Source of the DNA: Rhizaria sp. SCN 62-66
Lineage: Eukaryota
Assembly: GCA_001724265.1 (NCBI GenBank)
Contig: MEDY01000028.1
Span: 1-64,000, forward strand
Direction of reading: 5' to 3'
DNA length: 64,000 nucleotides
The notes beneath the pieces were generated by a model. It had not been told where the DNA came from. It searched no databases and was given only the letters and a program-made list of their open reading frames with translations. Positions 15,356-56,886 of the stretch are shown one piece after another; the first letter of the stretch is position 1; each line of letters starts with the position of its first letter. Position numbers and translations under genes: made by a program.

Positions 15356-18300
15356 TTACATATCGTTATCGTTGGCGTCATCACCGCCATCAAGCGCCGC
15401 ATCGCCGTCGGGCGAGTCGGCCGCAGCGGAGGTGTCGCCCTTGGCACCGCGACCCGCACCGCGCTTGCCGCGCTTGCGCCGCGTCGGCTTGTGCTTGGGG
15501 GCAGCCGCGGCAGTCGCGGAGGCGTCGCCACCGTCCACCTAAGCAACAACAGCAGCAGTAGCAGCGGTAGCGCCGGCCTCATCCAACGCGCCCGCCAGCC
15601 CGGCCGCCGCCCCGCCCGCGCTGTCCGCCGCCGCCGCCGCGGCGCCGCGGGCAGCCGCGGCCCCGCGCTGCGCGCCGTGAGCGGCGCGCTGCGTCTAGGG
15701 GTCCGGGGTCTGCTGCGGCGCCGCCGGCGACTGCGGAGAGGGCTGCTGCAAGGGCGCGGGCGGCGGGGGCCGGGTCGCGGGTGGCTGTCGGGGGGCCGGC
15801 GGCTCTAGCTGCGGCTGCGGCTGCGGCTGCTGCACGGCCGCCTGCTGTGTGCGAGGCGGCTGAGTGTGCGGTTGAGTCTGCGCATGATTGTGGCTGTGGC
15901 TGTGCGTGTGAGTGTGAGTGGGCGTGAGAGCGTGCGAGTGCGTCGTCGGCGCGTGCCCGTGCCCGTGGTAGTGGTGGTCGGAGCTGACCGCGACAAGACC
16001 AGAAGACTCAGCAAAGCCCGCGCGTGCGGACGCATGCACGTCATTCACGGGCGTCAGTGCCTGCGCCTGCACCTGCGCCTGCGCCTGCGCCTGCGCATGC
16101 GCGGGGATCGGTGTAACCGCGGGCGAGGGGCCCGACCCGGCACTGCGCGCGCTGCGGCCGCTGCCGGAGCGCCCCAGCCGCGGGACCGCGTCCGCGAGCC
16201 CCGGCGCGGGCCCCAGCGTCGGTGTCGGCGTGAAGGCCGGGATGAAGTACCCTGCGGGCGACGGTGACGCCTGCCCCGGCGGCTGTAGCAGCAGTGGGGG
16301 CCGCGAGAGCTGCACGGGCGAGACGCCCGCGCCCGCGGAGCCCGCCAACAGCGGCACGGCGTAGGGCGGCGGCGTCGTGCCCGGCTGCAGCGAGAGCCCA
16401 GGCGCGTGGCCGTGCTGCGCGTGGTGCGGGTGCGTATGGCCGTACATCACATGCGCATGTCCGTGCGCGTGCGTGTGCTGCAGGTGCAGATGCTGTGTGT
16501 GCGCCGCGTGTGCGTGCGTGTGATAATGCGCGAGCGAACGGCTGTTGGGAGGCCCCAGCGCAGGCGAGTGCGTGCGGTAGCCGTGCGAAGGCGATCCCTG
16601 CGCATGTGCATGCGAGTGATGGGTCGATACGTGCGGAAAGACGACTTGGCCTGGGACAAGTGCATTTGGCGGCGGAGAGTGGCCGGGGCCCACGTAGCCC
16701 TGCGGCACGGCCGCGGCGTAGCCCATCACAAACGCCCCAGGCGCGGCTGCACCAACCTGCGGTAGAGCCGGCGCACCATAGAAAACGCTTGGGTGGCCGG
16801 GCGGTGCGTACGCATACGAGACCGCGCCGGGGACGGCACCAGGTGCAGCTCCGGGAATCACGAACGCGCCGGTATTCATCATACCCATGCTATGGCCGTG
16901 GCCCTGGTTGAGTCCCTGTTGTGGAGCACCGTACGCATGAGGGCTGCCGTAACCATGGGCATAACCGAGCACGTAGCCGTGGCCGTGCGCGTGCGCGTGT
17001 CCGTGCACATGGGCAGCGCCGGGCGGCGTAAGCGGCAGCGGAGGTGAGATGCCCCAGCCCAGCACTGCGCGGCCACCGGAGTGAGGCACGTTGGCCGCCG
17101 CGTGAACGACGGCCGCCGCGGTGGGCACCACAACCGAGAGGCTGTTGCGAGGTTCAGGCACCGGCGACGGCGGCGCAGACACATTCGCGCCTCGCACACC
17201 TCGCGCCCCATGTCCATGCCCATGCCCATGCCCATGTCCGTGTCCATGTCCATGTCCGTGACCGTGCCCGTGACCGTAACTGTGACCGTGGGCGTGCCCG
17301 TGGCCGAAACCGCGCGAGGGCGCGTCCTGAACAGCGCCGAGGCTCTGCGAGGGCGCCAGCTGCTGCGGGGCCATGAGGCCGCCGTAGCCCGCCGGACCGG
17401 CGCCGAGCACGGGCACGAGGCCGTGGCCGTGGCCCGGGTGCACGCCGAGGATCTGCGGCGCGGACCCCGATCCAGCGGTGCTGTGCGGCCCCACGCCGAC
17501 CGGCGACGCCGCGTTGTACGCAGACGACGCTTGCACGAGCGGTTCGGGACCAACGGGCATGCAGTCAGCGGCCGAGGGCAGCGGGAGAGCAGCGGCGTCA
17601 GCGCGCGAGAGCAGGACAGCGGCGGCGCCCGCGGCCAGTGCAGCGGTGACACGCGCGGCCGGGATGCCGAGCGCGGGGCCCAACACGTTTGGCAGGTCTG
17701 CGCCACTGGTGCGCCCGCGGGCGGGCGGGTCGGCGCCGGTTGCACTCGAGGACGCAGCTGCGGCGGCGGCCAGCGCGGCGCGCACGCGGGCGCCGGCGCG
17801 CGGGTGCGCCGCAGCGGCAGTCGACTCAGCAGCAGTCGACTCAGCAGCAGTCGCAACCGCAACCGCAGCCGCAGTAGTAGGGTCTGCGCTGTCGTCCTTG
17901 TCCGCATACGCAGTAGCTTGCTGCGACGGGCGTCGCTGCGGCGGCGCGCGCACAGGCGCGGCGAGCACGGTCGCGGCGTGTCGCGAGAAGATGGCGAGCG
18001 CGAGCGACGGCACACCTGCCGAGGGAACCGTGAGCGCGGCGACGAGCACTGCGATGGGATCATCGTCATCGTCCGCTGAGGGTGAGCCATTCGCACCGTC
18101 AGCCTTGGCACATGTCGCAGCCACGTTAGCGGTGGGCTTGGGCAGCGGAAGCAGGCGCTTCAGCGCGGGGCCCAGCGCAGTGGCGACTGCGGCGGCCTCA
18201 ACAGACACAGGCGCGTGCGTGGGCTGCACGCACATCGTGGCGCCGGTTGTGGGACAGAGCATCGCGCGCGCGAGAGCGCGGGACACGTCGCGCGCGAGCG

Positions 18301-21300
18301 AAGGCGGCACCACAGTCGGCGCGGCAGCGGCAGCCGCGAGCGCCGAGGGCGACAGCGTCAGGACCGCGGGCATCAGCGGGAGCGCCAGCAGCGACTGCAT
18401 GGATGGCGCGGGCGACGGCGAGCGCGACGGCGTCGGCGAAAGCTGCGGGGGCGCCGAGGCCGCCGTCTGCTGCGGCGACTGCGGTGCCACCACGGCCGCG
18501 GACACTCCCTGCACTGGCGACGCGGGCACCTCCAGTTGCTGCGGGGCGCGTGCGAGTGCGGCGGCGTCGCGTTGCTGCAGCTGTTGCAGCTGCTGTCGCG
18601 CGTACGCGGCAATGTACGCGCGCAGAGAAGCGCGGCGCAGAGCAGCGTGCGTGCCAGTCCAGACTGCGACGGCAATCGCGAAAGCAGTGGCAGCAGGTGC
18701 CGACGCAAAGAGCAGCGGCGGCAGTGGCGGCCCCGGCTGCGCACGCGCGGCTGCAAGTGCGCTGGCAGAAGCGCGCTGGAGCGCGGGGTCGACGTTGGCG
18801 GCCATGAACGGCTTCATCACCGCGGGCGGCAGTTGCAGCAAAAGCTCAAGGCGCGACTGACGGTACCGCGTCGCTTGTGTCGGCAACACCAGGCGCGACA
18901 GCAGTGGCACGCGCCCCGACCGCGCACCCGCGGCAGTAGCGGTGTTCCCAGTGGCAGCGCTATCACTCGCCGGCGCAGCGCCAGTTGCGAACGGCATTGT
19001 ACTCGACTCGAGGTGCGTGAGCGCGGGAAGCGCCACAGTCCAGTCCGCAGCGGGCGCGTCTTCCGGCTCAGCTTCGGCGCCGGCACCATGCACGGACTGC
19101 GCGGTCCGCGTGATGAGCGAGAGCGCGTGCGAGTCCTCGTTAAGCGCCGACGCGGCCTGCGCGAACGCGGCCAGCACGCGGCGCAGCGGCCCGCGCGCGG
19201 GCGCGCCGAGCGCCACGCGCGCGCCGGTCACGGGATCCAGCAGCACCAGCTCGCCGCGGCTCTCGCCGGCGGAGGTCGTCGCACCGGGGCGGAACGGCGG
19301 CAGCGCAGACACGCAGTGTTCGAACGAGTGCGCGTCGCAGAAGCCCGCTTCTCCAGTTGGCCCAGCGCCAGCAGTGTCCGGAGCAGTGGCGGAAAGCCCC
19401 ACAGCGGCGCGCCCGAAGGAGCCCGCGGTGTAGTAACGCAGGAAACCGAGCAGCAGCGCGCCCAGGTCGGCGTCGCCCACAGCTGCACCCGCCGCCGCCG
19501 ATGTAGCTGCGGTCGCAGGCACCGGCGCCGAGGCCGGCAGCAGCAGCGGCTGCATCGGCGGCGCAGTTCCCGAGCCCGCGCCCGACGCGGCCGAGAGCGC
19601 GGGCGACGGGGGCGCGGAGCGGTCCGGCGTGGCCGCGCCAGACGCATGGGCGCCGGCTGTATCGGCGTCAGCGTCGGCACCGGCGTCGAGAGCGATGACA
19701 CCGAAGAGCGGCAGCGCGTCGACGCTGTAGTAGCGCGGCGGCGGCGGTGGGGGCGGCTGCACGGGCGCCACGCGCGTGCGGCGCGGCGCAAGCGAGTGCT
19801 GCTGCGCATGCGGCGACTGCGTCAGAGTGTGCGGCTGTGGGCGCGGCGCGCCTGGCGCGGGGGACGTCGAGCGCGACAACGACAACGACTGCGAGTGTGC
19901 GCGCGAATGCAAGGGCTGTGGCGACGCAGCGCGGGAGCCTGAGTCGGTCTGGGCCGCAAGCAGCAGCGCGCGGTGGCCCAGCGCGCCGGGCTCGGGCAGC
20001 GTCAGCAGTGTCGCGACGGCCGCGGCGGCGTTGAGGAAGCCCGCAAGCGCGCCCGGAGCGTCGCGGGCCGCAAAGGGCGGCGGCGGCGACGGCACGGGCA
20101 CCGGGGCGGCGGGTGAAGGCGCGGACGGCGAGAGCGGCGCGGGCAGTGCAAGCAACGCGGGTCCGACCGCGCTTCCCAGACTGGGCGACGCGGGCACCTC
20201 AGACGAGGCGGTCGCTGTGAGGCCCACGAGCGCGGCAGCGGCGGCGGCAACGTCAGCAGCGGGCAGCGGCGCGCCCACTGCGTCGACAGAGCACAGGTAG
20301 TGCACCAACATTACGGTCAAGTGGAACGTGCTCAGCGAGCCTGCGCCGGCGCCCGCCACGGACGCCGCCAGCGACGCGGTCGCGGCGGCGGCGCCGTGAC
20401 CGGCGACGAGCGCGGCCGGGGTCGCGGGAGCCGTAGCACGCAGCAGGCGGCGCAGTGTGAGCAGCAGTGGGCGCAGCGGTGGGAACGCGCGCAGCCACAC
20501 CAGCGTAAGCCGCGTGGCGAGCGCGCGCGCAGACGGCACGGCCACGGCGGCGGCCAGCGAGGTCTGTCCCGGCGCGGCGGCGTCGAGAGCGCAAGTGAGC
20601 GCGCGAGGGGGCTCGAACTCAACGCTCACGGGCACACCGGAGTCGGGATCCACGAAGCGCACCACAGCGCAGCCTGTGGGCACGCCGCTGACGGCGCCCG
20701 CTGCTGCGGATGAACCACCAGCAGCAGCAGCAGCAGCAGCGGCGGCGGGGGCAGAAGCGGGGCTGTTGGAAGGCGCCACGGCGCGCAGTCCAGCTTGACT
20801 GCTGTGCTGCAACGCAGGGACGGCAGGCTGGTGTTGGCCTGCGGGGCCGGCGGACTGTGCCGACGCTGATGCCGACGCGACTGAGACGGTGACAGTGGCG
20901 GCAGCGCGGTGTAGCCACGCCGCGCGCGCGCGCAGGGCCGCAGCCTCGGCCTCGAGGGCGGCCACCCGCTCGGCGTCCTGGCTGGCAGCTGCGGGCGCCG
21001 GCGCAGCTGATGTAGCGTTGCCGTCCGCGGCCGCGGCGGCTGTCGCAGGGGCCCGCGCGCGGGTGGCGCCCGCAGCGCCGCGGTTGCCGCGGCCGCGCCG
21101 GCCGGTGTGCGCGCCCGCATCGATCGAGGGCGGCGGCAGCCCCGCGGCGAGCGCGGCGACGTGCGCGGCGCCGAAGGTCGCCGCGGCCTCGGCGGCGGCT
21201 TCGTGCGCGCGGCGCGCAAACTCGCCCGCGACGTGTGCCGCAAAGGCACTCGCGTGCGCGGGGCCCAGGCACGCGGCCGAGGGCGCAAGCGCACACGCGG

Positions 21301-24300
21301 GCAGCAGCTGCGGCAGCGCGGGGCCCGGCGCAAGCACGGTCACAGCTCTAGCGCCAGCGCCAGCGTATGCGCCCGCGCCCGCGGTGAGAGCGGCTTGCGC
21401 GGCAGGTGTGTAGGGCGACAGCAGCGCGCGCGACGGCGAGAGCGGCGACGGGAGCGGCGACTGCGACAGCGAGGGCGACGCCGACAGCGACGGCGGCGGC
21501 GACGCCGACATCATCTGCGCCGGCGCAATCGCGGCGCTCTCAGCCTTGGCGTCGCCGACAACCAAGTCGACTACAGCGGGCACAGCGGCGGGCACGCGCG
21601 CGCCCGGCACGACGCCGGAGGACTCGGAATGCGCGCGCGCACGGGACGGCGCGGGCACGGCCAGGGTCAGGTCGCCGCTCGCGCTGCGGCCCGTCTTGAC
21701 ATGCGCGCCTCCGCCCGCGGTCGCAGTCGCCGCGGGACCGGCCGCAGCGGCGGTGGCGAAGGCGGTGGCGACGGCGGCGACGCCGGGCCGCGCGCCGGCG
21801 GAGGGCCCGCGCGCTTCGCCGAGCGTGATGGACGCGCGCGCGCTCGGCGGCTTCGGCGGCAGCCACAGCGGGGACGCGCCAGCAGCGCATGCGCCCGCAC
21901 CAGCAGGGCCCACTGCACAGGTGCCGCCAACAGTGTTGTGGCCTGAGCCAGAGCCAGAGCCGGAGGCGGTGCGCGGCACGCCGCCCGCGGCCACCAGTAA
22001 AGCGGCGGCGGCGGTGGCGGTGGAGAGTCTCCGCGACGTGTGCGCGCGCGGGGAGCGCTGCGTGCCGCCAACAAGCAGCCCCGACGCGTGAGCACTCACC
22101 TGGAGCGCTGCCGAGGACGCGCCACCGAGCGCGTGCGCGTGTACCTGTGACTGCGCGGGCACCTGCGCGTGCGTGGACAAGGGCGTGGGGAGCATGCCCT
22201 GCGCGAGCGCCTGCGCGACGGGGTGCGCGTAGGGCTGCGTGAACGCGGGCAGCGCAAAGGCGAATGCCTCGGGCGCGAGCGCAACGGCGGCGCTCGACGC
22301 GGGGGCGCTCGCAGGCGCGGGCTCCACGGGCGATAGCCCCGCGGGCACGGCCACGGCCGCGGGCGTGGGCACCGGCGCGGATGCGGGGTCCGCGGGCGCG
22401 GGGACGTGGGCCGCGAAGAGCGCGGGGACCGAGTCGGCGCGCCAGTGCGTCGCGGCGGTCTCGTTCCACGCGCGCGGGTCCGAGGTCCAGCGGCGCAAGG
22501 CGGCAAGCACCTCGGCCTCGGCCGTCGCGGCCGCGGGCGGCAGGTGGCGCACCGCCAGGTCCACGGCCGACACCACGCCGCCGCCGCCCGCCGCCGCGGC
22601 CACCGCGGTGACCGCCACGGCGCCGCCCGCCGTGTTGTTCGGGTCAGCGGCCGTGCCGGCGTCGGCGGGCCCGTCTGCGAGTCCCGTAGCGGTGGACCCC
22701 ACGACGTCGGCGACGACGTCCTGCAGCGCGGGGACGCCCGCGGCGGCGGCCTCGCCCGCGGCGCGCGCCAGGAAGCCCGCCAGAAGCGTGCGCGCGGCGG
22801 CCGCGGCGGCGCGGCGGCGGTGCGTGCCCTGCGCCGTGGGCGTCAGCGCGGCCGCGCAGCGCAGCACGGCCCAGTGCAGTGCAGACCGCGGCGCGCGCGG
22901 CAGCATGTGCGCGTCGCGCGCCGGCGGCGGTGACCGCGGCGGCGGCGAGCGCGCCGGCGGCGGCGTGCGCGCGGGGAGAGAGCGCGGCACACCGGCGCTA
23001 GTGCCAACGCCGACGGGCGCGGGGGCGGGCATCTGGACGTGCATCGGCGAATGCGCCTGCGGCTGCGCCTGCTAAGCGTGCGAGGTGGACGGCGCAGCGA
23101 GCGCAAGCGCGGACAGCGGCGGCGCATCGGCACCGACGCCAACGCTCGCGTCCCGGCTGTGGGAAGCCTCCGAGGCGGCGGGCGCGGTCGCGGCGGCCCC
23201 GACCAGCATCGCGTCGGCGTCGGAGCGCGTGCGGCCGTGGTGACCGTGGCCGGGAACGTGACTGTGACCAGCGGCGGGCCCCGTCGCCGACACAGCTCCA
23301 GCCCCAGCGCTCGCCAGCGGGCTCTCAACAGCAGTCTCGCCGTCGCCGTCTCCGTCACCGTCGCCGTCGCCGATGCTACGCGCAAGCCCGTGTCCGAGGC
23401 CCGCGCGCGCGAGCTGGTGGTGATGCTGGCGCAGCGGGCGCGGGCCAGTGTCCGAGAGCCGCGGCCGGACCAGGTACGCCTGCGCCGCCGCGGACAGCGG
23501 CGCGGGAAGCGAGTCGGACGCAGACGCAGGCACCGCCGCGGCTGTCGCAGCAGCAGCAGCAGCAGCAGCAGCGCTGGGTGCGCCATCGCTGACTGCGACA
23601 GTGGCCACGGCCGCCAACGCGCACTGTTGTCGGTCGGCACCGAAAACCTCTGCAGCTGCGACCGCGTCTGTCGCCCGCGTCGAGTGATGTCCCTGCTGTG
23701 CGAGTGTTTGCACTGCTGGGGGCTCGGCCATGCTGTCGCAGTCGCCCTCGTTGTCGCCGGGCGCGACTGAGCTGCCGCCGGGGGTGGTCTCGCCCGCCAC
23801 GACGCCCGCGGCGCCGCCATCCGCGAACAGCCCCGCGCCGGGGCGCGCGAGCGCAAGCGACGACAGACACAACGGGGCCGCGGGCGCAGGCGCCAGCGCG
23901 AGCGGCGCAGGCAGCTCCAGCGGGGCCGGCGACAGCTGCGCTGTGGCGGAGGCAGCGGCCGCGCCAGCCGCGGTGGCGGAGTCTATAGCGCCAGCCACGG
24001 GCGAAGCCTGCGCGTCGCGCTAGAGTTGCGTGCGTGGCACCGAAAGCAGCGCAGCGTGCGGGCGGTACGGCGCGCGCGCGCGGGCCCGCGCCGCCAGCGC
24101 ATACAGTGCGGCGGCCACATCACCACCCCAGACCGAGTCACTGCCAGAGCCTGCGTCGTCGCCGTCGCCGTCGCCGAGGCCCGTGGCGCGCGGGACGCCC
24201 CAGGCCGCGGCCACAGCGGCGGCGGCGGACAGCGGCGCTTGAGGCGATGACGATGCGGACGAGGATGACTCGGCAGACTGAGTCGACTGCGACTGCGACC

Positions 24301-24748
24301 GGGATGATGGCAGGCTCTGCAGGGGCGGCGCAACCGCTTTATAAGCAAGTCTAAAGGCCGCAGTGGCGTCGGTCTAGCCCGCGGCTGCGTCAGTTGAGGC
24401 CGTGGAAGCCGCGTACGTGACGGGCTCGAAGTGCGGGTGCACGAAGTGCGGCTCGCGGGCCGAGGCGCGCACTGGCGCGGGCGACGTCGCGCGCGGGAAC
24501 GGCGGCGTGGGGATGCGCTCGGGCGGCCGCACAAGCGCCGCGGCCAGCAAGGGCAATGCTGCGGGCACGAACGTGTTCTTGGTGTGCGGGACGTGCACGA
24601 GCGGCTGCGTCACGCCCTCCGTGCCGTCGGCCTCGGGCGGCGAGGTGAGCGTGATCACCAGGCCCGCGCCGCGCCATGGCATGAGCGAGTCATGCGGCGA
24701 GCGCGGCTCCACGTCGGGGCCGGCGTCAAAGGAACTCAGTTTTGACAT
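15356..24748 (-). CDS. Giant (~3130 aa) low-complexity protein with a Trf4/Cid1-type nucleotidyltransferase/PAP-associated region; 5 in-frame TAG codons
   Basis: ORFs 24374-24748, 24020-24214, 23072-23998, 15695-23044 and 15356-15538 share one frame. They are separated only by TAG (24374, 24020, 23072, 15695, 15539) and end in TAA. Motifs: VVRFVDPDSGVPVSV, LRPLLLTLRRLL, GSLSTFHLTVMLVHYL, DLGALLLGFLRYY, LVLLDP. Confidence 0.7.
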
Positions 24749-25265
24749 CTAAAAGAAGCTGACAGCTTGTGAAACGTGGCAGCGAGGCGGTTCGTCCTCG
24801 GCGCAACTCCGCTCTGCTTCTGTGAAGCCAAGTTTGAAAAGTGAAAAGGGGATGTCCGCAAAATTAACAAAGTGTTACAGTAAAAGACTACATGGAGTAC
24901 TACATATATTGCGATTTCTCAGTCGATACCTCAACAAAACACTGAACAACGGAGTTCGCATGGTACACTAAGAAACTTTAAACGAGTCTTGTAAGCACGC
25001 TCGCGGCTCGTCCCTCTCGTCCAACCACAAACAGCTTTTGTATGACAAAACGGCATGAAATGCACGCTTATATCAAAGTACAAGCGGATTACAATCAAAT
25101 AATAAGATATAACAGATATGTTCACAAGAAATAAAACTAAAATTCACAAACAAAACGTTGCTATATACCAAATAAAACATGTTATAATCGGAGGTTAACC
25201 CCGAACTGTTGGTCACTTAAAAACTCCGAAGCGCTCACTTTGCTCTTGCACACCGTGCGTCGCAC

Positions 25266-32893: not shown

Positions 32894-35800
32894 TTACTGC
32901 GAGCCCGTCAGCTTGGCACGCGCGGCCTTGGCGACGGCGCACACAGCCGTCCCCAGCGCACTCGTACTAAACTTACCGGCACCGACACCGGCGCCGACAC
33001 TGGCGTTAACGCCGCCGACGCTGACGCCGCAGCCAGCGACCGTGGTCTGCAGCCCGAGGCCCAGGCGCAGCGAGGAGGAGAAGCCCGCAGTGCCGCTGGT
33101 CGAGCCCCCGGCCTTGGGCCGGAGGAGCCCGCCCGAAAGCGCGCCCGCGCCGGAGGCCGCGGCGGAGACGGCGAGCCCAAGCCCAAAGCGCGCGCGGGCC
33201 GCGGCGGGGCGGGGCGGCACGATGGCGGCGTCGTCAGCCTCCTCGTCCTCGGCGTCGGCCCCACTGGCTGCCCATGAACCCGCTCCCGCTCCCGCTCCGA
33301 CTCCAGCTCCGGCTCCGACTCCGGCTCTAGCTCCGGCTCCGGTCCGGGCTCCGGCGCCGGCCCGGGCTCCGGTGCCGGCTTTGGCAGCGGCAGCGGCGGC
33401 GGGCTGGCGGGACTTGGCCGCCCCGCCGCGAGCAGCACCGCCAGTGGCGACATGAGCAGCAATGGCAGCGGTGACCGCAGCAGAAGTCGCGGAGTCACGC
33501 GAGGAGGACGACGACGGCTTGGACTTGTTGCTGGCAGTGGCGATGTTTTCGCCGTTGGCGTTGACTCCGTAGAAGGCGGCGGTGCCCGCGACGGGGCGGC
33601 CGGGCACGTCGCTGAAGAAGGCGGCGCTGGCAGCGTTGACGTCCGTCTGCGGCGCGTCGGCGAGAGAGGTGCGGCTCGCGGCCGAGAGCACGGGCGGCGG
33701 CACAGTGCGTTCGGCGCGGGGCACGTAGTTGCCGTGTGCGTCGGTGATGCCCCAGGCGCGCATGAGCGCGGGATCGAAGCCGTCTGCGTAGCGCGCGAAG
33801 ATGTCGCGCGCGAGGTCCTGCTGGTGCAAGACATCAAGCAGCAGCACGAGCTCCGGGTGGCGCGAGCGCGGCGTCGCGGCGCGCGCGGCCAGGTCCTCCT
33901 CTACCATCGGCCGCACGCGGCGCGCAAAGCCGTGGGGCGAGGTGCCGATGAGCTGCGTGAGGTAGCGGCAGACGAGCTCGTGCTCGTGGGGGGGCAGGCC
34001 ATGCGAGCGGAGGAACTGCGTCACCGCCGATGCCGTCTCCGTGGTGATATGGCGACCAGAGGCCTCGCGGAAGGCGTCCAGGTCAAAGCGGCGCACAGGT
34101 GGCGGGTGGTCGCGCAGACGGCCGACGCCGGCGCGCCGCAGCAGCGAGAGGATCGCGCGGAAGCGGAAGCCCGAGGTGTGACCGAGCGCGCCCGAGATGT
34201 CAGACAAAAGCATGAAGGAGAACTCGTGGCCCGCGGCGAGCATCACGGAGCGCAGGTAGCTGAAGCGCAGCATGCCGGCGAAGGACTTGGAGCGCACGAT
34301 GAGCTCGACGAAGCTGGCGACGTCGCACGTGTCCTGATAGTACCGCATCACCTGAAGATATGACAGCGCGAGCGGGTACGTGTCGGAGCTGGTGCGACGC
34401 TCGAGCACCGAGAGCTCGCGCGTCGCGCCGCGCATGTCGCCCTTGAGGACGTACGCGCGGACCAGCGCCTGCTGCATGATGAGGTCCACCATGGGCGGGC
34501 GGCGGACCGTGAGCATCGAGCCCACGGTGTCGGACGACGCGCCCCACTCGCCCACACTGGGGGGGTCGTCCAGCAGCGGCTTGAGGTCGAACGACGCGAC
34601 TGAGCGCGCCGCCTCAGAGTTCATGTCGGCCAGACGCAGCACGGCGGACCAGAGCGGCATGTGCTCGCGCGCGCGCGGGACGGCCGAGCCCGACTCGAAC
34701 GCGCGCGGGTCCACGCGCCGCATCGCCGCCACCAGGGTGCGGAAGTCGGTCAGCGAGGCTGGGAGATCAAACTCACGCACCGAGAGCGGGGACACAACTA
34801 GCAACTCGCAGTTCCGACCGACAAAGTCGTTGAAGATGGTGATGGCGAGGTCAGGGTCGTTGTGGCGCAGCGCGGCCTGCATGATCACAGTCGCCGTGTT
34901 GGCGTGCACGGCGTGGCCGTAGCTCGTCATGGTCTGGACCGAGTGGCGCAGGCGCGCGACGTCGCAGTTGCGCGCGTGGAAGGCGATCCACATGTTGTAA
35001 AAGGACGGCAGCATCGGCATCGAGTGCTCCGACAGGTACGCCATCACCTGACGCGCGCGCACGAGGTCGTTTTGCTGCAGGAACACGTTGAGGAAGCGCG
35101 CCATCGTCAGCGTCGTCACACGGCGCAGCTCCGTCACAGTGCCCTTGCGGACGCTGACGCCGAGGATCGCGGTGAGCGTGCGCGGGCGCTTGAGATCGCG
35201 CGGGAGCGCCATAACCCAGTCCCACGTCGACTCGGGATCGAACAGTCCCATGTACGCGCGCGTGACGGCCGACAGCGTCATGAGCTGCCCCACGGGGTGG
35301 AAGCCGAGGAACGGCGGCACGACCACGCGCGACGTGTCGCCGAGCCGACGCTCGCGGGCGAGGCGCTCGCGGTCGCGGGCCTCACGGTCACGCAGCGCCA
35401 TTTCGCGCGACGCCTGCGCCGGGTCCACCATCTGCGCCACGGGCACGGCCTGGACCTGTGAGCGCAGGGCCTCATACTCGCGGGCACTCATCCCCATGGC
35501 CGCGGCCATCTCCGCCAGCGCCGTTTCCTCCGCCGTCGAGGAGGCGCTCTCGGTAGCGGGCAGCGGCGAGGATGACGACGCGCTCCCCGTCGCTCCAGTC
35601 GTGGTGTGCTGCGATGCGGCCTTGCTGCGGGCGTGCGCAGTCCTGACGGCGGCCTCGGCGGCCTCGGCGGCGGCCGCGGCATCGGCGGCGCAGTCGATCG
35701 CGCCGCCATAGAGCTTCATGTCTTCCGCAGCGTCGCCCCAGGTCGAGGCCCACATCGCGGTGGAGCGGAAGAAGGCGTCATCCTGGATGCGGACATTGTG

Positions 35801-41800: not shown

Positions 41801-42910
41801 CGTCGCGCGCTCCGCGTGGCCGGGCCGCGCCAGCTCCTCGGCCTGCAGCCGCGGGCGGGGCGCGCCCAGGTCCGCGGCCGAGGCCGGGACGGGCGGCATG
41901 GCGTAGTGCAGGCGCGCGCGGGTGAGCCCCGCGGCCGAGACCAACGGCGACGACGACGCGGCGACCTCAGCGAGGGCGGCGTCGACGTCGCCGTAGTCGC
42001 CAGCAGCGGCGGCGGCGGAGGTGGTGGCGGCCAGGTGGCGCTGCGCGACCGTGTCCAAGGGGTCCGTGGGAGACAGGTGACCGAACATATGGCCACCGGA
42101 GACGCTGTCCGCGGCGAAGGCGGCGGCGGCGGCGGTGGCGGCGTTGGGAGGGCGGCGGCCGAGGTGCCCGGAGCTGAAAGATGCGGGGGTCGCTTCGGAG
42201 GCATGTGCCCAGCGCCAGCCGCGGCCAGCGCCCGGGCCGCCGGTCTAAGCAGCTGCGTCTGAGAGAGCTCTGGGATCAGCATTTTCGTTGTCATCGCCGT
42301 CGTTAGTGTTGTTGCTGCGCTCACCGTGCGTCGCTGTGGTTGCCGCGGGGTCAGCGGCGGCAAATGCGGCGGCGTCGTAGGGGCGCGTGGCGTAATCGGG
42401 ACCGTCGAAGTCGTCGTAGTCGGCGGCGGAGCGCATGACGCCGTCCTGAGAGTCCGCAGTGTACATGAGATTGGTCAGCGGGGGAACTGCGTGCGAGCGG
42501 TCTGCAGCGCTGTGGTGGTCGTCGGTCGCGAGCGTGGAGGGCGCGCTGAGAGCGTCAAGGTCAAGACTCGAGCGGCGCATGACGTAGAAGGACTTGTTAA
42601 GCTTGCCTGTCTTGATCGTGTCTTCGAGATCAAAGCGTGCCTGGAGCAGAGTAAGCTGCTCCAGAGTTGCCCACTCCTCCTTAGTCATGCTCATCGACCG
42701 GTGCGCGGCCGATGCAATCTGTGAGTATTCGCGCTCGGCGCTGCTAGTCGACGGGGTGATCGGAGAGCGCGTGGAGGCGTCGCTGGGCGCGGGCGCAGAG
42801 ACCGCAGATGGTAGTGAAGACGCGGTTGTGTTTCCTGCGGCGGTGAGCGCGGAAGCTCGCACGCGGCGCCGAAGACGGGCCAGGCAGGGACCCGAACGCG
42901 GCGTTAACAT
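32894..42910 (-). CDS. Giant (~3338 aa) PPR-containing, probably mitochondrial protein; 3 in-frame TAG codons
   Basis: ORFs 42245-42910, 41774-42088, 38666-41701 and 32894-38524 are one frame, joined across TAGs at 42245, 41774 and 38666 and ending in TAA. The N-terminus is Arg-rich and presequence-like. 35-aa-spaced PPR-like repeats (SFYNMWIAFHARNCDVARLRHSVQTMTSYGHAVHA / NTATVIMQAALRHNDPDLAITIF) lie near 34830-35110. Confidence 0.7.
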
Positions 42911-43580
42911 ACCGGTCTAAAAGGGGCAAGCGGGTGATTGCATGCAAACGCGGATGTATGGACAAGGGGGACATGAGTGAGCGAGGTGCGGAGTGGGGAG
43001 GACGATAGACCGCAAACTCAGAGGAACGGCAGAAAGAATTGAAATCACAACAATAGAAGAAATTCCCCAGAAAGATGATATAACAACACATTAAGTTTGG
43101 CAGCTTTATATAACATATGTAAATTAGATATATATCTACGAAGACTGCATCTCACAAGCAATGCAGTAAGTACTCCAGCCTCCGCACCGTGGGTGGTGCA
43201 GCGATTGTGCCGAGTCCCGGCTGCAAACCACGCCGGTCTGACACCCAGTCATCTGCTCTCGCATGCTTAAGTCCGAATGACGGGCAAAGGCAAAGTTTCA
43301 TCGACCATTACAGATTAATAAAGACAATAGAACGTGTCAGTTGTTTAATTTTGCGAATTTATTTCTCACATGTGTTGTTCATATGCGAGCTATCATGCAT
43401 CTTGATCATCGTGGATACGCGTCATTATGTGTTTGTGTTATTTGTTTTTGGAAGCAGAGACTAGCGTATCGATCAGCATCCTATCTTTCTCATTGCTATT
43501 TTCAATTACCCAATTTCATCATCATCGTCAAAACTCCTCCTCCTAACCTAGAGTTGTCCTCCGAACGTAACAAAGCAGTT

Positions 43581-46019: not shown

Positions 46020-46050
<31 letters not shown>

Positions 46051-48333: not shown

Positions 48334-51300
48334 TTACTTGCTGCGGGCAGCACCGGCGCCACGACCGCGGCCGCCGCGACCTCCACGGCCGCCGCGCCCC
48401 CCGCGGCCGCCGCCCCCGGTGGCACCAGCGCCGTCACCAAAAATGTCGTCGCCGTCGCCATCGCCCGTGTCAGCCCCTGCGCCAGTGGCAGCTCTACCGC
48501 CGCCGCTGTTGATGTCGTCAAGGTCGTCGCCGTCGGCGTCGCCCGCGGCACCCGCGCCGCCCTCAGCTGCGCGCATCGCAGCCTCCATCATACGCGCCAT
48601 GGGGTCCTCGTCAGCGGCGCCGCCGGCGCTCTCGTCCTCCTCCTCGTCCTCGCCGTCAGCTGCAGCAGCGACGCCCGCAGCGGCGGCATCGGCGGCAGCG
48701 GCCCCGTCGCCGCCGTCCGCGCCAGCGCCCGCGGCCCCGTCGCCGCCCGCAACGGCGCCCGCGGCGGCCCCGTCGGCGTCGTCGGCCTTCCATGCGAGGC
48801 CGCCAGAGTAGACCGTAGCCTGAATCGAGTGCTTGACCTTAGCGCGGCGCAAGATGTGTTCCTCGACGGTGCCCGTGCAAGCAAGACGGTAGATGGTGAC
48901 GGGCTTCTTCTGCCCAATGCGGTGCACGCGGTCCATGGCCTGCGCGTCCATCGTCGGGTTCCAATCGTTGTCATAGAAGATCACCGTGTCAGCCGCAGTG
49001 AGGTTGATGCCCAGTGCGCCCGCGCGCGTGGAGAGCATGAAGACGAAGTAGTCCTTGTTTTCGGTGAACTCACGCACCATGTCGCGCCGGTCCGCGAGCT
49101 CCGTGCCACCGTCAAGACGGAAGTACTTGTGCTTGACCTGCTTCATCACGTCCTCGAGCAGGTCCAGCACTTGCGTGAACTGCGAGAAAATGAGCACGCG
49201 GTGGCCCTCGCGCCGCAGCTGCCGCAGCAGCTTCACAAGGCGCTGCATCTTGCCAGACTCGGCCAGTAGGCGCTCCAGCGGCGCGGGCGCGCGCACGGCG
49301 GCCCACGGCGCGTCGCCGCCCGCATCTGTGGCTGCCGGAATCAGCGGCGCCAGCGCTAGCGTGGGCGGGGCCGCCAGCGCGGCGGCCGTCGCCAGCGCGG
49401 GCCACACGGCGCGCGCGTAGCGGGCGAGCTCCACTGCCTCGGAGTCGACGCGCGCAAGGCGGTGGCGCCAGTGCACGCGGCGCTTATACCCGGGGCCCTT
49501 GGCACCCGCCGCGGCCGCCTCTGCGGCCTCTGCGGCGGCGGCGGCGGCGGCGTTGGCCGCGGCCTCCTCCTCGGTCACCAGCGGGTCGACGGGCACGGGC
49601 GTCGCGAGCACCGTCACAGTCGACAGCGGCGCCGGCAGCGGCAGCAGCGACACAGGCACGCTCTGCGCGCCGGGGTGCGTAGCGCGCGCGGCGCGCATCA
49701 GCCGGTCGGCGAGCGCGAGCATCGGCATCGCGCCCACGGCCAAGGCGAGCGCGTCCGAGGGCGCGTCGTACAGTGGGAGCGCAACGGCAACCGGGCCTGT
49801 GGGCGGCGCGGTGGACGACGACGGGTACGTCACCAGGGCCTCAGTCGCGGACAGCGCAGGCGTCGCGACGGCGGCGGCAGCAGCGGCTGCCGCGGCCGCC
49901 GCGGGCGAAAGGCCGACATGCGGCACGGGCGCGAGCGCGGTGGGCTCGTTGGCCTTGGAGGTGCCCTTTTTGCCGTCGGTTCCGTCAGCGTCGTCGTTGT
50001 TCGCGTCGCCCTCAGCAGCGTCGCCAGCGTCGTCGTTGCCTTCCTCCTCTTCATCGTCGTCATCGTCGCCGCCTTCGGCGCCAGTGCGCGGCGCCGAGAG
50101 CGCGGGAACGTGGAACTCGGGTCCGCGGCACTCGTTCGCAACGCGGATGTCGCACAGCAGCGACACCGACGCCGGCAGCACGGCACCCGCACCCGCCGGC
50201 CACCACGCCCCCGCGGGCGCAAGCAGCGAGCGCTGTGGCGTGTAATGACCCGCAACCGCGTTGGCCGTCGCCGACGCGCGCGTGTTGGCGCCCGTCAGCA
50301 GCGCAAGCTCCCAGCCATTGGTGAGGTAGCCGAAGCGCGCGCGCGCCGAGCCCGCGGCGTGGGGCACGATCGGCGGCGCGCTCGCGATGGGCAGCGCCAC
50401 GCACACCACGCTCAGCAACGGGCGCGCGCGCGCAAGCCACGCCGCCGGGTCCGCGCAATGAAGCGAGTCGAGCGCGAGCAGCCCCGCTGTCGAGGGCAGC
50501 GATAGCAGGCGCGCGCGGTGGCGCTGCGCGACGGCGAGTCCGCGCGGCGACCACAGCATCGGCGTGTTGGAGAAGCCGACCGCGGTGCTCAGCGCGGACG
50601 CGGCGCCTGCGTCGGCAGTGGGCTGCAGGCCGAAGAGCGAGAGGAACGTGTCCTCGACGTCCAGCGGCACGTCGCCAGCAAGCACAGTGCTCTGACCAGC
50701 AGCCAGAGTCGGCCTCGCCTCGACAACGGGCGCGGGTGCAGAGGTAGACGCGGGCAGCGCAGTGTTAGATGCACCTGCGCTAGTAGCCGCAGCCGCAGTG
50801 GCAGCGGCAGCCTCCGTGGCGTCAAGCATTTGAACGAGCGGAAGCGCGTCCGCGGCGGCGCGCGCGGCGGCCTGAGACAGCAGCTGCGCGCGCGTGCGCG
50901 AGCGGCCGTAGCCGTCGTGCAGCGTGAGGAACGCGTGGGGGTCGTCATTCGCGCGCGGGGCGCGACTGGGCGTGAGTGCCGACGGCAGCGCGGGCAGTGC
51001 GGGCAGCGGCGTGAGCACGTCGTCGAACAGAGCGCGGCCTGAGCACGGCGCGCGCGGGTACAGGCGCAGCGCCGCTGCGGTGGCAGACTCGGAGGCTGCG
51101 TCGGCATCGTCCAGCGCGCGGCGCGCGGCCAGCAGCGCCGCGGGGGACGCAAAGCAGCGGCCCTGCACAGCAGCGTCAGCGCTATCGCGAGCGGGCAGCT
51201 GCAGCTGCGCGGAGACGCGGTAGTGGCGCACGCGCTGCTCGCGGTCGCGCTCAGCGATGATGTGCGCAAGGAAACGAGAGAGCGCGCCTGCGGAGCGCGC

Positions 51301-54300
51301 GAACTCGACCTCACCCGCCGACAGTGACGCAAAGCGCGTGAAGCTGAAAGCAGAGTTCGCGAGCACAGTCGAGTTGCCCTGCGTTGAGCTAGAGCGCATG
51401 CAGTCGGTCAGAGATGCATGGACGCGGTCAGAGCGGAAGATAGAGAGCTCCGAGCACAGTAGGCGCTGGCGCGCGGCGACTGAGGGAGTGGCAGAGAGCT
51501 CGATGCCGCGCCACTCAGCCTCGACGCCGCTGCACGCCGAGCGCGCAGTGCGCAGTGCGCCGCCGCTGATCCCCGAGGCGTCACCAGCACGGCCCGCGAG
51601 CGCGGCCGCCAGCGCAGCGGCGACGCCCGTGAGCGGGGCGCCAGCGGCCGGGGCAGCAACGACGGGGCGCAGCACGCGCAGCGAGCGCATGTCAGCGTCC
51701 CACGCCGCTGCGGGGTCGGCGCCGGGGCGCGCGCGAGGACCACGCCAGACGTCGACGCCCGCGGGGTCAAGCAGATCGAGGTCAAGCACAAGGCGCGGCA
51801 GCAGGTAGCTGATGGCGTTGCCGTAGAGCCCCGCCGACAGCGGCGCGACAAGGTCGCGGTACGGCAGCGTCGCGGCCGCGCTCGCGGACGCGCCGGCGGG
51901 AGCCGCGGCCTGCTCGGCGGCGCCAGCAGAGCCGCGCACGGGAAGGCACAGTGTGTAGGGCTGCGTGAAGGAGAACGGCGTGGTGGCCTGCGGTGGCGAG
52001 AAAACGTGCGTGTGGTTACACGCCTTGCGCAGCTGCATCACCGTGTTGACGGCATCGGACGACGACAACGCCGTCGCGACCGCGCCGGAGCCGCCCGCGC
52101 CGCCTGCCCCACCGGCGCCACGCGCGCCCGCGCCACTGTGCACGGCAGCGAAGGCGGCTGACAAGGCCGCGAGACGGCGCGCGGCGCGCTTGCTCGTGGG
52201 CGCCACTGCCGCCGTCGCCGTCGTGGCGGCGCGCGCGTCCGAGCTAGGCAGGAGCGCGCGCGCGGCGATGGCGGCGGCGTCGGTGTCGTCACCGGCCGCG
52301 ATCGGCGTCTCAGGTGCGGTGTATGCCGCAAGTGCGGTGGGCACAGGGTTGTAGTCGCCAAACAGCCACGAGGGCACCGCGGGCGCGGCGGGCGCAGCGG
52401 CACCAGCAGCGGCCGGGGCAGCGGCGGCAGAAGGCGCGGCGTAGCCTAGTGCGCTCATGGCGGCTGTGCCGCCGAGTCCCTCGTAGATCTTGCGCTGCGC
52501 GACGGAGAGGTAGCAGGGCACGAGGCGCTCGATCTTGGGCGCGAGCTCGTTCTGCACGTCGCGCTTGACGCGGCGCAACATGAAGGGTTTGAGCAGCACG
52601 TGCAACCTGCGCACCTGGTGTTGGTTGAAGCCCGTGACCTTGGCGATAACGGACGACGACGCGGACGCGGAGGAGCCCGCCACGGCTTCGGACTCGATGT
52701 CCTTGGCGAACCACTCGGAGAACTCATCGTGCGAGTCGAAAAACTCGGGCATAATGAAGTGCAGCAGCGCCCACAGCTCCGCCATCGAGTTCTGGATCGG
52801 CGTGCCCGTGAGCAGCAGACGGTTGCGGCAGCGCAGCGACAACAGCGTCTTCCAGCGCTGTGACATGGCGTTCTTGATGGCCTGCGCTTCGTCGAGGATC
52901 ATGAACTGCCATTGCAGACGCGAGAAGTACGGATGGTCCTGCACCACGATGTTGTACGACGTCACCAGCACGTGGAACGGCGCCGACTCGACGTACAGGT
53001 GCTTCGGGTTCCAGAACTTACGCAGCACTTTACGTTCAGCCTGCGTGCCCCAGTACGGCAGCGCGCGCAGACGCGGGCAGAACTTGGTGAGCTCCTGCTG
53101 CCACTGGTGCAGCGTCGAGTTGGGGCACACGACGAGGAACGGCCCCCAAATGTTGCGCGAGCACGCCAGATACGCCAACAGTGCAATGGCCTGGATCGTC
53201 TTGCCGAGACCCATTTCGTCGGCCAAAATGCCGTTGATACCTTGGTCGTAGAGGTGCACGAGCCAGTTGAGACCCTTGCGTTGATAGGGCTTGAGTTCGC
53301 CCACGAACGACGATGGTTCGACGATTTCACCGTCGCCGGGCGCGGGCGCGCTCTCTAGCGCAGCGGCAGCCGTGCCCTCGTCGCCCTCGCCCATGCCGCG
53401 CACCAGCGCCGCCTGCGCGGCCGCGGCCGCGGCGGCCTCGGCCATGGCGTCGGCCGCGTCGGCGTCGCAGTTGAGCGCGCGCGCCTCGGCCTGCGCGATC
53501 ACGGCGGCAGAAGTGCCGGCGAGAATCGCAGCGTCGTTGCCGCGCGAGTGCTCGAATGACTTGGACAGCGACTGTGCGGCTGCAAGCTCGCGCTTGTACT
53601 TGTCCGCGTTAGCTTGCACGTTAGATATGTAGCTCGACGTCGCGAGCTGCGCCTCTTCGTCGATGTTGTCGCCCTCAGCATTGCCGCCGGCGACGGGCGC
53701 GAATGTCTGCGTGACGTGGCCGCGGTCGGGCACGTCCATGCCAAGCCGCTTGCCGATGAAGTGCGAGAAGATCTCCGTCTGCGTGAGCATGAACTGCAGT
53801 TTGCGCCGCTGCCGCTCGCCCTCGCGTTCCTCTTCCTCCCGCTTGCGCCGCTCGTCGTCCTCCTTGAGCTGGCGCTTGAGCAGCTCGCTGGCGTCGCGCT
53901 CGTGGCGCCGCCAGTACTGCGCCATCTCGCGCACGAGCTTCTTGGTGCGCTGCGGCACATCGCGCGTGCCGCGGTACGTGCGCGCAAACCGACGGCGCAG
54001 CACCACCGTCACGGCAGCGGCCACAGCGCGCACGCGCAGCTGCGCCACGGCCCGCGCCGCGCGCATCGCCGCCGCGCCAGCGGACACGGCCTCGGCGACA
54101 TCGGCCCACACACTGCGCGCGCGCCCGCACGGCAGCAGCTGCGGCAGTAGCACATCTTCCTCGGCCGTGTATCGCGAGGTCAACGCAGTCGCCGTGGGCG
54201 CCGCGGGGAAGCGCGACGACATGACCGTGCGCAGGCCCAGCGGCACGAAGCCAGCGCGCTTGGCCGGCTGTGAAGCGTCTTGTTCGAGCTTCACCGTGAC

Positions 54301-56886
54301 AGCAGATGCGGGGACGGCAAAGTACGACGCGGCATCCGTCGCCCCCGCGGCCTCGAAAGCGGCGAGCGCGGCGGCAGTGCGCGCGCGCGCGGTCTCAGCG
54401 GCGGCTTCTGCGGCGGCGTGAGCGGCCCAGACCTGCTCCGGCACGCGCGGCGCGACGCCGGCGCCCATGACGTCGCATGGGGCCGCCGCGGGCACGGCCG
54501 CGAAGCGCGCGGGCAGTGTCTGCCGCGCGCACGCCGCCAGCAGCGCGAGGTCGGCGACGGCGTCCTCGGAGGCGTCATCCGCGCTCGCGCTCGCGGCAGC
54601 GGCCGCGGCGGCGGCAGCGGCGGCCGCGGCGTCTGCGCTATTGTCTTTGGCCGCGGTGGCGGCGGCGGCGGCGGCGGCGGCCTTGGCGGCGCGCTCGACC
54701 TCCGGCGCGGGCAGCTCTGTGTAGCGGCCCGCGAGTCCGCGCAGCGCGTGCCAAGCCAGCCAGCGCAGGCGCGCCACGGCGTCGGCCAGCGCCAGCCGCG
54801 CAGCCGCGGTCGCGGACAGCGCGTGCGCGCCGGCGGCAGCGCGGGTCAGGGCCTGCAGGCGGCGCCGAGCCGCGGTGGCCGCGTCGGTCGGCGCGCGCCG
54901 CTCTGTCGCTGCAGCAGCTGACTCAGCCTCTGAGGCAGTGACATTAGGCGCGATTTCGGCGTCGCTGGGGGGCAGCACGATGGGCGCGGGCGCCGAGGCC
55001 GCGACGGCGGCTGCGATGAACGCAGAGGGGTCGCGCGCAGCCACAGCAGCATCGGCGGAGCCCTCGGTTTTGACCTTGGCGGCGCTCGCACCAGCGGCGG
55101 TGTCGTCGTTGTCCTCGAGATCGGTGCCGTCGTTGGCCCAGTTGTTCGCGCCGGGCGCGGGGCGCGGCAGCGCGACCCCCGCGGCGGCCAGCACGGCCTC
55201 CGCGACTGTGTGCTCTCCCGCAGCCTTGGACTTGGCGTTGGTCCCCGCCTGCGCCGCCGCCGCTGCCGCCGCCGCAGTGTTATGCGTGGAGCGCGCGACG
55301 ATCTCGGCGGCCGCAGCGACGAGCGTAAGTCGGAGCGCGAGCGCGGGCGTCAGCTGCGGCGGCGGCAGCACCACGGCGGCCTCCGCGCCCGCGGTCGCGG
55401 CGGCGACGGCGGCGGCTACATCGGCTGCGCCCGCGGCGACGAAGGCCTCTGGCGCGCCCGTGGCCGCGGCGCCGGCCTTGGCCGCAAGCACGGCGAGCGC
55501 AACACCCGGCAGCCGGCGCGCGGAAAAGGCCGGAAAGCGCGCGGACAGCGCGGCTGCGAGCAGCCGCGCGAGCGCCGTCTCGTCACGCGCGGTCGAAACG
55601 ATGGGCTGCGCGTGGGCCGCGGCGCCGCGCGCGGCAGATGTGGCGCGTAGCCACGCGATCGTCGACGCCGGTGCGGACGCGGGCAGCGCGGAAGCCAGAC
55701 GGTTCAGCTCACCCAGGCGCGCCACCGCGGCAGAGAGGGCGGCAGACGACGCGCGTGGCGCACTGGGCGCCGACGTCGACGCAGACGCAGACGCGGCGGC
55801 AGCGGCGGCGGCGGCAGCAGAGGAAAAGACGGCGAGCGGGGTGCTGCTAGACGCAGACGCAGGCGCAGGCGCCGGGACAGACGCGGGCGGCGGCCGCTTG
55901 ATCTGGCTGGTCGCGGAGGGAACGGGAGCGGCTGCCGAAGGAGCGCCAGTGACGCCGAATGCACCCAGCGTGCCCTGTTGAGTTGCGCTAGTATGCGTGG
56001 GGGCGGGGGCGGGGGCGGGGGCCGCGGGCAGCGCGGCGGGCACGTCTGCGTCGCCGGAGCCGGGCACGCGCGCGCGCTTCACTGCGGGCTCCACGGCGTC
56101 CGCGCTGGCGCTTGATGAGGGCAATGGCGCAGTCGCAGTCGGAGCCGTCACGGGAGCAGGCGTGGCGGCGGTGGTGATAGGGACGCTGGGGCCGGCGGGC
56201 TCGGGCTTGACGGCCGCAGACACAGCGGGCACGACAGTGGCAGCAGCGGCGGCGGCAGGGGGTGGGCCATAGGCCTGCTGAGACCCAGGAGCGGCAGCAG
56301 CAGTGGGGGCAGAAACAGGGGACGCGGCAGCGGCAGACAGAAGCGTATGTTGTTGCATTTGCTGCTGTTGCTGCTGCTGCTGTTGGAGCATAAGCAGGTG
56401 TTGTTGTTGTTGTGCCTGCTGTTGCTGCTGCTGTTGCTGTTGAATGAGCAGCATTTGCTGCTGCTGCTGTTGTTGTTGCTGCTGCTGCTGTTGTTGCAGC
56501 TGATACATTGCCAGCTGTTGCTGCTGCAGCAGCAGCTGCTATTGTTGCTGTTGCTCAAGCGCGTGCTGCTGTTGCTGCTGCATCAACGCCTGCTGTTGTT
56601 GCTGCTGCTGTTGAAGCAGAAGCGCGGCCTGATGGCGCAGCAGCTGCGTCTGTGTAGCGGCGCGCTCGCAAGCGGCCTGCGCGGCGGCAGCGTGCGCCTG
56701 CAGACCGGCCAGCGTCTCGGGTGCCGCGCCCTGTGCCGCCGCGTCGGACAACGCGCGCTGCGCCGCCTGCGCCGCAAAACACGCCGCGGCGTACTCCGCG
56801 TCGGCCGCGGCGACCGCAGCGGAGACGGAGGCAGCAGCGGGCGCGGGGGTGGGGCCACCGGGAAAGCCGGCGGATGCGGAGTGCAT
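48334..56886 (-). CDS. INO80: INO80 chromatin-remodelling ATPase (~2850 aa); 1 in-frame TAG inside the N-terminal poly-Gln
   Basis: DBINO domain (KKLVREMAQYWRR..RQRRKLQFMLTQTEIFSHF), GILADEMGLGKT, LDEAQAIK, split helicase with a long insertion, STRAGALGINLTAAD, QAMDRVHRIGQ. The upstream ORF 56539-56886 is in frame across the TAG. TAA stop. Confidence 0.93.
56351..56612 (-). repeat. CAG/CAA poly-glutamine coding repeat in the INO80 N-terminus
   Basis: Runs of (ctg/ttg)n on the + strand. Confidence 0.9.

Follow-up and report, generated by a model that had tools for sequence, protein, structure and literature searches.

In our reading, the eukaryote represented by the first 64,000 nucleotides (nt) of contig MEDY01000028.1 (assembly GCA_001724265.1), the stretch analyzed here and called the window, translates UAG into an amino acid and uses UAA and UGA as its only stop codons; we put the probability of this reading at about 0.8. 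Nine TAG triplets lie inside three continuous, selected reading frames on the minus strand, and no gene of the window ends in TAG. The frames belong to three giant genes, referred to as gene A, gene B, and INO80 (Table 1). Their 9,318 codons contain nine TAGs, no TGA, no internal TAA, and no frameshift, despite repeats that are prone to insertions and deletions. An initial annotation, made from the letters of the window, had listed these nine TAGs and had described each frame as running on unshifted, free of TAA and TGA, to a terminal TAA (at 15356, 32894, and 48334). All nine coordinates proved correct, as did the description of the frames.

Table 1. Giant genes, TAG triplets, a reference intron, and metagenome contigs covering TAGs. 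Paired values are the G+C content (GC) of the 60 nt before and after the TAG.
Feature	Position	Strand	Details
Giant gene A (putative Trf4-like)	15356..24748	-	3,130 codons; ATG 24746-24748, TAA 15356-15358; alanine-rich, low-complexity
Gene A TAG 1	24374..24376	-	codon 167 of stop-to-stop frame; GC 0.72 before, 0.62 after
Gene A TAG 2	24020..24022	-	GC 0.77/0.77
Gene A TAG 3	23072..23074	-	context HA[TAG]QAQPQA; GC 0.77/0.77
Gene A TAG 4	15695..15697	-	112 codons upstream of terminal TAA; GC 0.80 before, 0.90 after
Gene A TAG 5	15539..15541	-	GC 0.68/0.77
Giant gene B (putative PPR)	32894..42910	-	3,338 codons; ATG 42908-42910, TAA 32894-32896
Gene B TAG 1	42245..42247	-	in-frame
Gene B TAG 2	41774..41776	-	GC 0.82/0.80
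Gene B TAG 3	38666..38668	-	separates standard ORFs of 1,035 and 1,923 codons in the same frame
INO80 gene	48334..56886	-	ATG 56884-56886, TAA 48334-48336
INO80 TAG	56539..56541	-	inside glutamine run
TAG directly 5′ of gene A ATG	24749..24751	-	treated as 5′UTR, left out of count
TAG two codons 5′ of gene B ATG	42917..42919	-	treated as 5′UTR, left out of count
Intron	13245-13381	-	GTACGC...CGCAG, 137 nt, GC 0.37; reference for local introns
X3 contig	23581-24658		covers TAGs 24020 and 24374
X3 contig	42157-43000		covers TAG 42245; 0 differences
X3 contig	41316-42106		covers TAG 41774; 0 differences
X3 contig	37007-41257		covers TAG 38666; 0 differences

Reading frames interrupted only by TAG

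With TAG read through, the stop-to-stop frames extend over 15356-24874 (gene A), 32894-43090 (gene B), and 48334-56913 (INO80) on the minus strand. They contain six, four, and one TAG, respectively, and each has a single TAA and no TGA; the off-frames of the same strand carry 26-44 TGAs per giant gene. TAGs 24749 and 42917 were assigned to 5′ untranslated regions (UTRs) because the coding score there was near zero or negative. The parts of each giant gene outside its longest standard-code open reading frame (ORF), 2,198 codons in all, served as test segments. These held no TGA or TAA, against 32 expected from the mean of the two off-frames (Poisson P = 1.3e-14). The 558 codons from the gene A ATG to TAG 23072 similarly held none, against 5.5 expected.

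These counts bear on the proposal that TAG is an ordinary stop and that the frames stay open beyond it by chance in GC-rich DNA, the flanks being UTRs or separate genes. Long chance ORFs are indeed common in the window, which has 64 standard-code ORFs of at least 250 amino acids (aa), many of them mutually overlapping. Chance, however, predicts the 32 TGAs and TAAs that the test segments lack, and the UTRs and intergenic DNA of the contig are AT-richer, whereas the read-through segments are not. Start codons are also absent where separate genes would need them. Specifically, the next ATG lies ∼50 codons beyond TAG 38666 and hundreds of codons beyond TAG 24374, and the coding signal resumes immediately at both. 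We therefore regard this proposal as extremely improbable.

Coding signal was scored with a codon-usage frame model trained on the Pfam-supported genes of the window. At each of the nine TAGs the same frame led before and after it, and a six-frame scan kept to one frame throughout each giant gene. The final windows of gene A, past TAGs 15695 and 15539, had coding scores of 13.8 and 26.1, and the 115 INO80 codons upstream of TAG 56539 had same-frame scores of 16-25 per 40 codons. In gene B, the signal begins near codon 100 of the stop-to-stop frame. Thus, of the two features by which we compared the window with known UAG-only codes, the first, in-frame UAG inside genuine coding sequence, was found at nine TAGs in three frames.

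Base composition gave a similar picture. The 60-nt flanks of the TAGs had a GC of 0.53-0.90, with no drop. Past the three terminal TAAs it fell from 0.67 to 0.37 (gene A, 15356), from 0.69 to 0.43, and from 0.87 to 0.34, which is the normal signature of a gene end on this contig. As GC falls only past TAA 15356, gene A ends there, beyond TAGs 15695 and 15539.

Introns of the window are AT- and T-rich, start with GTACG, end with CAG, and measure 137-211 nt with a GC of 0.37-0.44, distinct from the GC-rich exons. The 137-nt reference intron links ORF 13236-14960 and ORF 11462-13534 into a single gene, which has a weak match to the DUF4795 coiled coil. A gene with a Leu_zip domain is split between ORFs 7307-7684 and 6491-6853, and introns lie at about 7135-7345 and about 6855-6960; the contig is otherwise intron-poor. 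In the giant genes, no 60-nt window with a GC below 50% was found at or near any of the nine TAGs. An intron reading of the TAGs was rejected: no AT-rich element lies there, and the frame is unchanged at all nine. The sole GTACG near a TAG, at 24416, would make a GC-rich, frame-breaking intron of 43 nt. A further in-frame TAG, at 4405-4407 and 5′ of the M16 peptidase domain, comes after a stretch rich in pyrimidines, with no ATG from there to the domain, and resembles a 3′ splice site.

As to what the giant genes encode, INO80 is solidly identified by three Pfam domains (DBINO, 3.1e-30; SNF2-rel_dom, 1.7e-77; Helicase_C, 2.5e-24). The other names in the initial annotation, Trf4-like for gene A and PPR for gene B, are treated as leads. 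Neither gene, searched whole and in sub-segments (six in all), had a Pfam match at E ≤ 0.01 (best for gene B, PPR_2, E = 0.3). Look-alikes from the Atlas feature search agree with both names at low recognition value: gene A residues 1330-2130 resemble PAP_assoc/TUTase clusters (score 0.93, with 162 features shared), and gene B resembles PPR clusters (0.95, with 191 shared). Gene B, whose N terminus is arginine-rich (MLTPRSGPCLARLRRRVRA), is a near-orphan: a 1,200-residue piece gave two HMMER matches among 1.84 billion representative proteins, one being its own shortened gene call, P0125, and the other a 58% fragment spanning residues 1096-1194 only. A word search with residues 1150-1850 against proteins of 1,868-5,947 aa found no homologue across TAG 38666. 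P0125, the public standard-code call of gene B, has its last residue directly before TAG 38666. In gene A, a long His-Gly dipeptide repeat (GHGHGH...) occupies 17207-17306, with His-rich tracts downstream, and the codon-usage score is strongly negative there.

Gene ends, RNA, and strain variation

The genes of the window end in TAA (9) or TGA (7) and never in TAG (n = 16). The initial annotation had given 17 ends, 10 TAA and 7 TGA. Those counts were reproduced, with no TAG among them, but TAA 13236 belongs to another frame at the edge of an intron and is therefore not a gene end, which makes the tally 16 instead of 17. The second feature that we compared, UAG never ending a gene while UAA and UGA do, was thus found in a small sample from one contig. 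The usual share of TAG among eukaryotic stops is 20-25%, at which 0 of 16 ends would arise by chance with a probability of about 0.01-0.03. TAA is the commonest terminator despite a GC of 66%, at which the most AT-rich stop is expected to be rarest. Together, the open frames, coding signal, GC, gene ends, and absence of introns at the TAGs support what the initial annotation had proposed, namely that UAG is translated while UAA and UGA still stop.

We searched for the window in other sequencing runs. Of the sampled window words, 0.98-1.00 were present in three metagenome runs labeled as bioreactor or wastewater, each of which may be where the window comes from. A 2025 study of activated sludge supplied two more runs, one of them a metatranscriptome of polyadenylated RNA (polyA), with 0.36-0.41 of the words; shares in runs X6-X11 were small. 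Window proteins are also on record, valyl-tRNA synthetase (ValRS) from seven contigs and MPP-beta from six, the longest contig having 89,046 bases. Contigs of four runs were aligned to 23040-43000, a stretch with eight TAG places, including 24749 and 42917. Those of run X3, which is possibly the window's own source, showed no differences from the window and cover at least six of the eight places (24020, 24374, 38666, 41774, 42245, and 42917); a contig of run X4 has TAG 24749 unchanged. The many apparent joints in the run alignments have sides of 20-30 nt and resemble cross-matches of GC-rich repeats, and they are not taken as evidence on splicing.

The RNA contigs bear on whether the code is standard and the TAGs are corrected in RNA, either to UGG by adenosine-to-inosine (A-to-I) editing, which some ascomycetes apply to UAG in their sexual stage, or to CAG by U-to-C editing. 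Because such editing acts on UAG, it would yield a pattern of TAG only, and RNA cover of the sites is nearly nil. RNA-library contigs flank TAG 38666 on both sides, and none spans it. However, a contig from the polyA library X5 (24355-24659, record 17), which has only 19 nt on one side of TAG 24374, holds that TAG and matches the DNA with no other letters. No difference at a TAG place was among those listed, with the proviso that contigs drop rare variants. Moreover, the organism did not group with fungi in the ValRS or the MPP-beta tree, and editing leaves the absence of TAG gene ends unexplained. RNA editing is accordingly given very little weight.

Strain variation in gene B fell at third codon positions in eight of nine cases (two of two upstream and six of seven downstream of TAG 38666), and third positions also predominated in a GCIP-like gene (14 of 17 variants) and in that for L17 (9 of 10). 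The listed differences behave like between-strain variation under purifying selection. These data are relevant to an explanation of the TAGs as marks of decaying pseudogenes, nonsense polymorphisms, or assembly errors, in which TAG dominates because CAG, GAG, AAG, and TCG are common codons. Under the codon usage of the giant genes, 68-69% of one-step nonsense changes indeed yield TAG. All nine TAGs lie in fast-evolving, low-complexity stretches, and gene B lacks detectable homologues beyond one relative. Decay or error would nevertheless be hard to reconcile with 9,318 repeat-rich codons that hold no frameshift, TGA, or TAA and whose codon bias is intact, with the third-position variation, or with the role of INO80 as a core chromatin remodeler. 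In addition, the TAGs are identical in another assembly, and proteins of the contig recur on six to seven contigs of different assemblies. We consider this explanation very unlikely.

Scarcity of UAG and the amino acid it would encode

UAG is a rare codon, with 9 occurrences in the 9,318 codons of the giant genes and none in about 6,400 codons of ten better-conserved genes. This scarcity is relevant to a further explanation, in which UAG, formally still a stop or else ambiguous, is leaky and the three proteins arise through frequent readthrough by a near-cognate tRNA, the code not being cleanly reassigned. Rarity, avoidance in the ten conserved genes, and limitation to tolerant low-complexity sequence would all suit a leaky stop. 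CAG follows two of the sites, in a vague likeness to known readthrough contexts. But three or five serial readthroughs per gene would leave little full-length protein, the bases following the nine TAGs (A, C, C, A, G, A, C, T, C) reveal no shared downstream context, and none of the 16 genes terminates with TAG. We judge a leaky stop to be unlikely. As a separate observation, AC follows 4 of the 11 TAGs (42245, 24374, 15695, and 42917, as TAG ACC or TAG ACG), which may be chance.

Our preferred reading, UAG as a sense codon, has to be weighed against several results that count against it. Under an even spread, the absence of TAG from the ten better-conserved genes has a probability of about 0.009, (9318/15748)^9, and this absence is also what tolerated nonsense changes in weakly constrained genes would predict. 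All nine TAGs fall outside Pfam matches and other conserved regions. No alignment was obtained that places UAG at one particular residue, gene B being without an alignable homologue across its TAGs. The finding of TAG only is weak on its own, since so large a share of nonsense paths leads to TAG (0.68^9, about 0.03). No tRNA gene was found in the 64-kb window by ARAGORN or Rfam, and the window does not encode eRF1. Within 23040-43000, no TAG is spanned by an RNA contig that reaches 31 nt to either side of it. Finally, the sample consists of 16 gene ends and three TAG-bearing genes from one contig, and the two TAGs that stand in single-amino-acid tracts point to different residues.

The disagreement is between a glutamine and a serine tract. 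INO80 TAG 56539 stands in the context CAA CAG CAA CAA [TAG] CAG CTG, which points to Gln, whereas TAG 38666 of gene B stands in TCC TCG TCC TCG TCC [TAG] TCG, which points to Ser. A second glutamine-rich context is that of TAG 23072 in gene A, which precedes QAQPQA. In a nine-residue repeat around the INO80 TAG, the equivalent positions are Q, TAG, and L. As a first guess we propose glutamine, because CAG is the main Gln codon and is one transition from TAG and because one TAG lies in a polyglutamine run; leucine and serine are also possible. Translation of UAG as Gln corresponds to NCBI table 15.

The mechanism can be outlined by analogy. In the exLh and Iotanema study (Panek et al. 2017, PMC5304391), the known cases involve a CUA-anticodon tRNA that arose by a one-base change from tRNA-Gln(CUG) or tRNA-Leu(CAA), and altered eRF1, with an alanine where human eRF1 has Leu69 in exLh and T32G in the GTS motif in Iotanema. 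By extension from those cases, a tRNA with the anticodon CUA, derived from a neighboring tRNA such as Gln-CUG or Leu-CAA, would read UAG in the present organism, and the grip of its eRF1 on UAG would be lost or weakened. That UAG is rare and limited to tolerant sequence is consistent with a codon whose decoding is weak or whose capture was recent.

Host lineage and comparison with known UAG-only codes

The host, a eukaryote from wastewater-type metagenomes, is uncultured, aerobic, rich in GC, and poor in introns. GC is 66% over the window and 70-78% in the giant genes. The window carries nuclear-type eukaryotic genes, mainly as single unbroken ORFs. Its other products include a cullin, ValRS, the DNA polymerase delta B subunit, an enoyl-CoA hydratase, and an S10 carboxypeptidase; there are also genes for an M16 mitochondrial processing peptidase, mitochondrial ribosomal protein L17, and a MORN-repeat protein. 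The peroxisomes that the initial annotation attributed to the organism had the enoyl-CoA hydratase domain as their only basis, and this domain does not demonstrate them. No Rfam RNA of any class was found in the window, nor is an 18S gene present. GC is lower at both ends (1-8000 and 60400-64000, 49-60%), and neighboring genes differ strongly in composition; an ARM/HEAT-like ORF at 1379-3145 scored poorly under the codon model, which was trained on GC-rich genes. Directly after the cullin gene lies a 10-base tandem repeat of 5.7 copies (60497-60553), which adjoins a minus-strand ORF (60958-61926) with proline-rich RPP-type repeats and no Pfam match.

Relatives of the ValRS have 76% and 59-63% identity. 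In a single-gene ValRS tree, the window falls in a clade of 12 sequences within a clade of 19 (support 100), the sole named member of the latter being an unidentified cercozoan (MMETSP0086, taxid 136419). For MPP-beta, there is a relative with 87% identity, and among named matches those to labyrinthulomycetes and oomycetes rank best (45-48%); in the MPP-beta tree, the window belongs to an eight-sequence clade that has no named member and stands apart from both groups. The organism thus probably represents an unsampled protist lineage, possibly a rhizarian one. Scans for further loci were largely negative. With the ValRS query, all 80 loci in genome contigs were bacterial, with at most 43% identity. 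Scans of viral contigs gave one 38% locus in one case and none in the other. An INO80 scan of metagenome contigs returned ten loci, none of them close. At one of these, L004 (70% in its best segment), the only TAG lies in an intron.

The INO80 query also led to an unrelated ENA metagenome contig, L002 (8,698 nt, GC 0.55), in which the interruptions are TAG only. Its INO80 fragment has seven in-frame TAGs, of which two fall within the DBINO match, and a WD40-like ORF has six (756-3647, 5788-7272); the TAG-bearing ORFs terminate in TAA and TGA. L002 probably derives from another UAG-sense eukaryote, perhaps a ciliate.

Reassignment of UAG alone has been described before in several lineages, and the present case is of the same kind on the two features compared. 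To our knowledge, nuclear codes that separate UAG from UAA were unknown before 2017 and are still few. One near counterpart is the code of the rhizarian exLh (Sainouroidea, Cercozoa), in which UAG encodes Leu and UAA and UGA are stops. According to PMC5304391, all 71 bona fide gene ends of exLh are UAA (56) or UGA (15), and 384 UAGs occur in 71 genes, at conserved leucines, UAG being scarcer in highly expressed genes and scarcest in those for ribosomal proteins. The window shares with exLh a sense UAG with terminating UAA and UGA, and since the only named member of its ValRS clade is a cercozoan, the two may be kin. However, UAG is used heavily at conserved Leu positions in exLh, whereas the window has 9 in about 15,700 codons and none at conserved sites, and exLh came from an insect, in contrast to the wastewater metagenomes that contain the window.

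In Iotanema spirale (Fornicata), as described in the same study (PMC5304391), UAG encodes Gln and UAG codons are scarce. Its code is uncoupled as in the window, for which Gln is likewise the most economical guess, but Iotanema is an anaerobic metamonad, whereas the window encodes mitochondrial L17 and an M16 processing peptidase at 66% GC. Ciliates offer further examples. In McGowan et al. 2024 (PMC11687900), five phyllopharyngean genomes and Protocruzia tuzeti have UAG alone reassigned, to Leu or Gln, with UAA kept as a stop, as in the window, and such codes arose repeatedly and independently among ciliates. The GC of these ciliates is 27-54%, in contrast to that of the window and its giant genes, and the ValRS and MPP-beta of the window fall in unnamed clades. 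The initial annotation had excluded Iotanema and ciliates, which is reasonable in view of L17, the M16 peptidase, and the GC. The same source cites the green alga Scotinosphaera (Ulvophyceae), in which UAG encodes Ser and UAA is a stop. It resembles the window in its uncoupled UAG, and one TAG of the window replaces an expected TCG in a TCC/TCG serine run, but green-algal ValRS lies in a different, well-supported part of the tree. Thus, the uncoupled codes listed in the initial annotation, those of Iotanema, some ciliates, and a rhizarian, were rightly named but formed an incomplete list, to which PMC11687900 adds the phyllopharyngeans, Protocruzia tuzeti, and Scotinosphaera.

The initial annotation further suggested an independent, possibly undescribed reassignment. 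That suggestion went further than the trees allow, given the cercozoan in the ValRS clade and an MPP-beta clade without names. Our literature search turned up no description of a UAG-sense code in a GC-rich protist from wastewater. We tentatively propose, at somewhat less than even odds, that the window records an independent UAG-to-sense reassignment at an early stage, in an unsampled, extremely GC-rich, aerobic protist lineage. UAG would have gone from all gene ends, and its return would so far be limited to rare use in low-complexity regions that tolerate it. If true, the window would offer a natural snapshot of stop-codon capture, in a base composition opposite to that of the AT-rich genomes that account for most known stop reassignments. 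Each new uncoupled lineage tests whether the coupling of UAG and UAA is a mechanistic constraint or a habit, and this case would add a very GC-rich genome with TAA as its commonest terminator (9 of 16), which is hard to explain by mutation pressure alone. Because public gene callers split the genes of this organism at TAG, as P0125 is cut at 38666, its database proteome is fragmented, and eukaryotic contigs in wastewater metagenomes need code-aware annotation.

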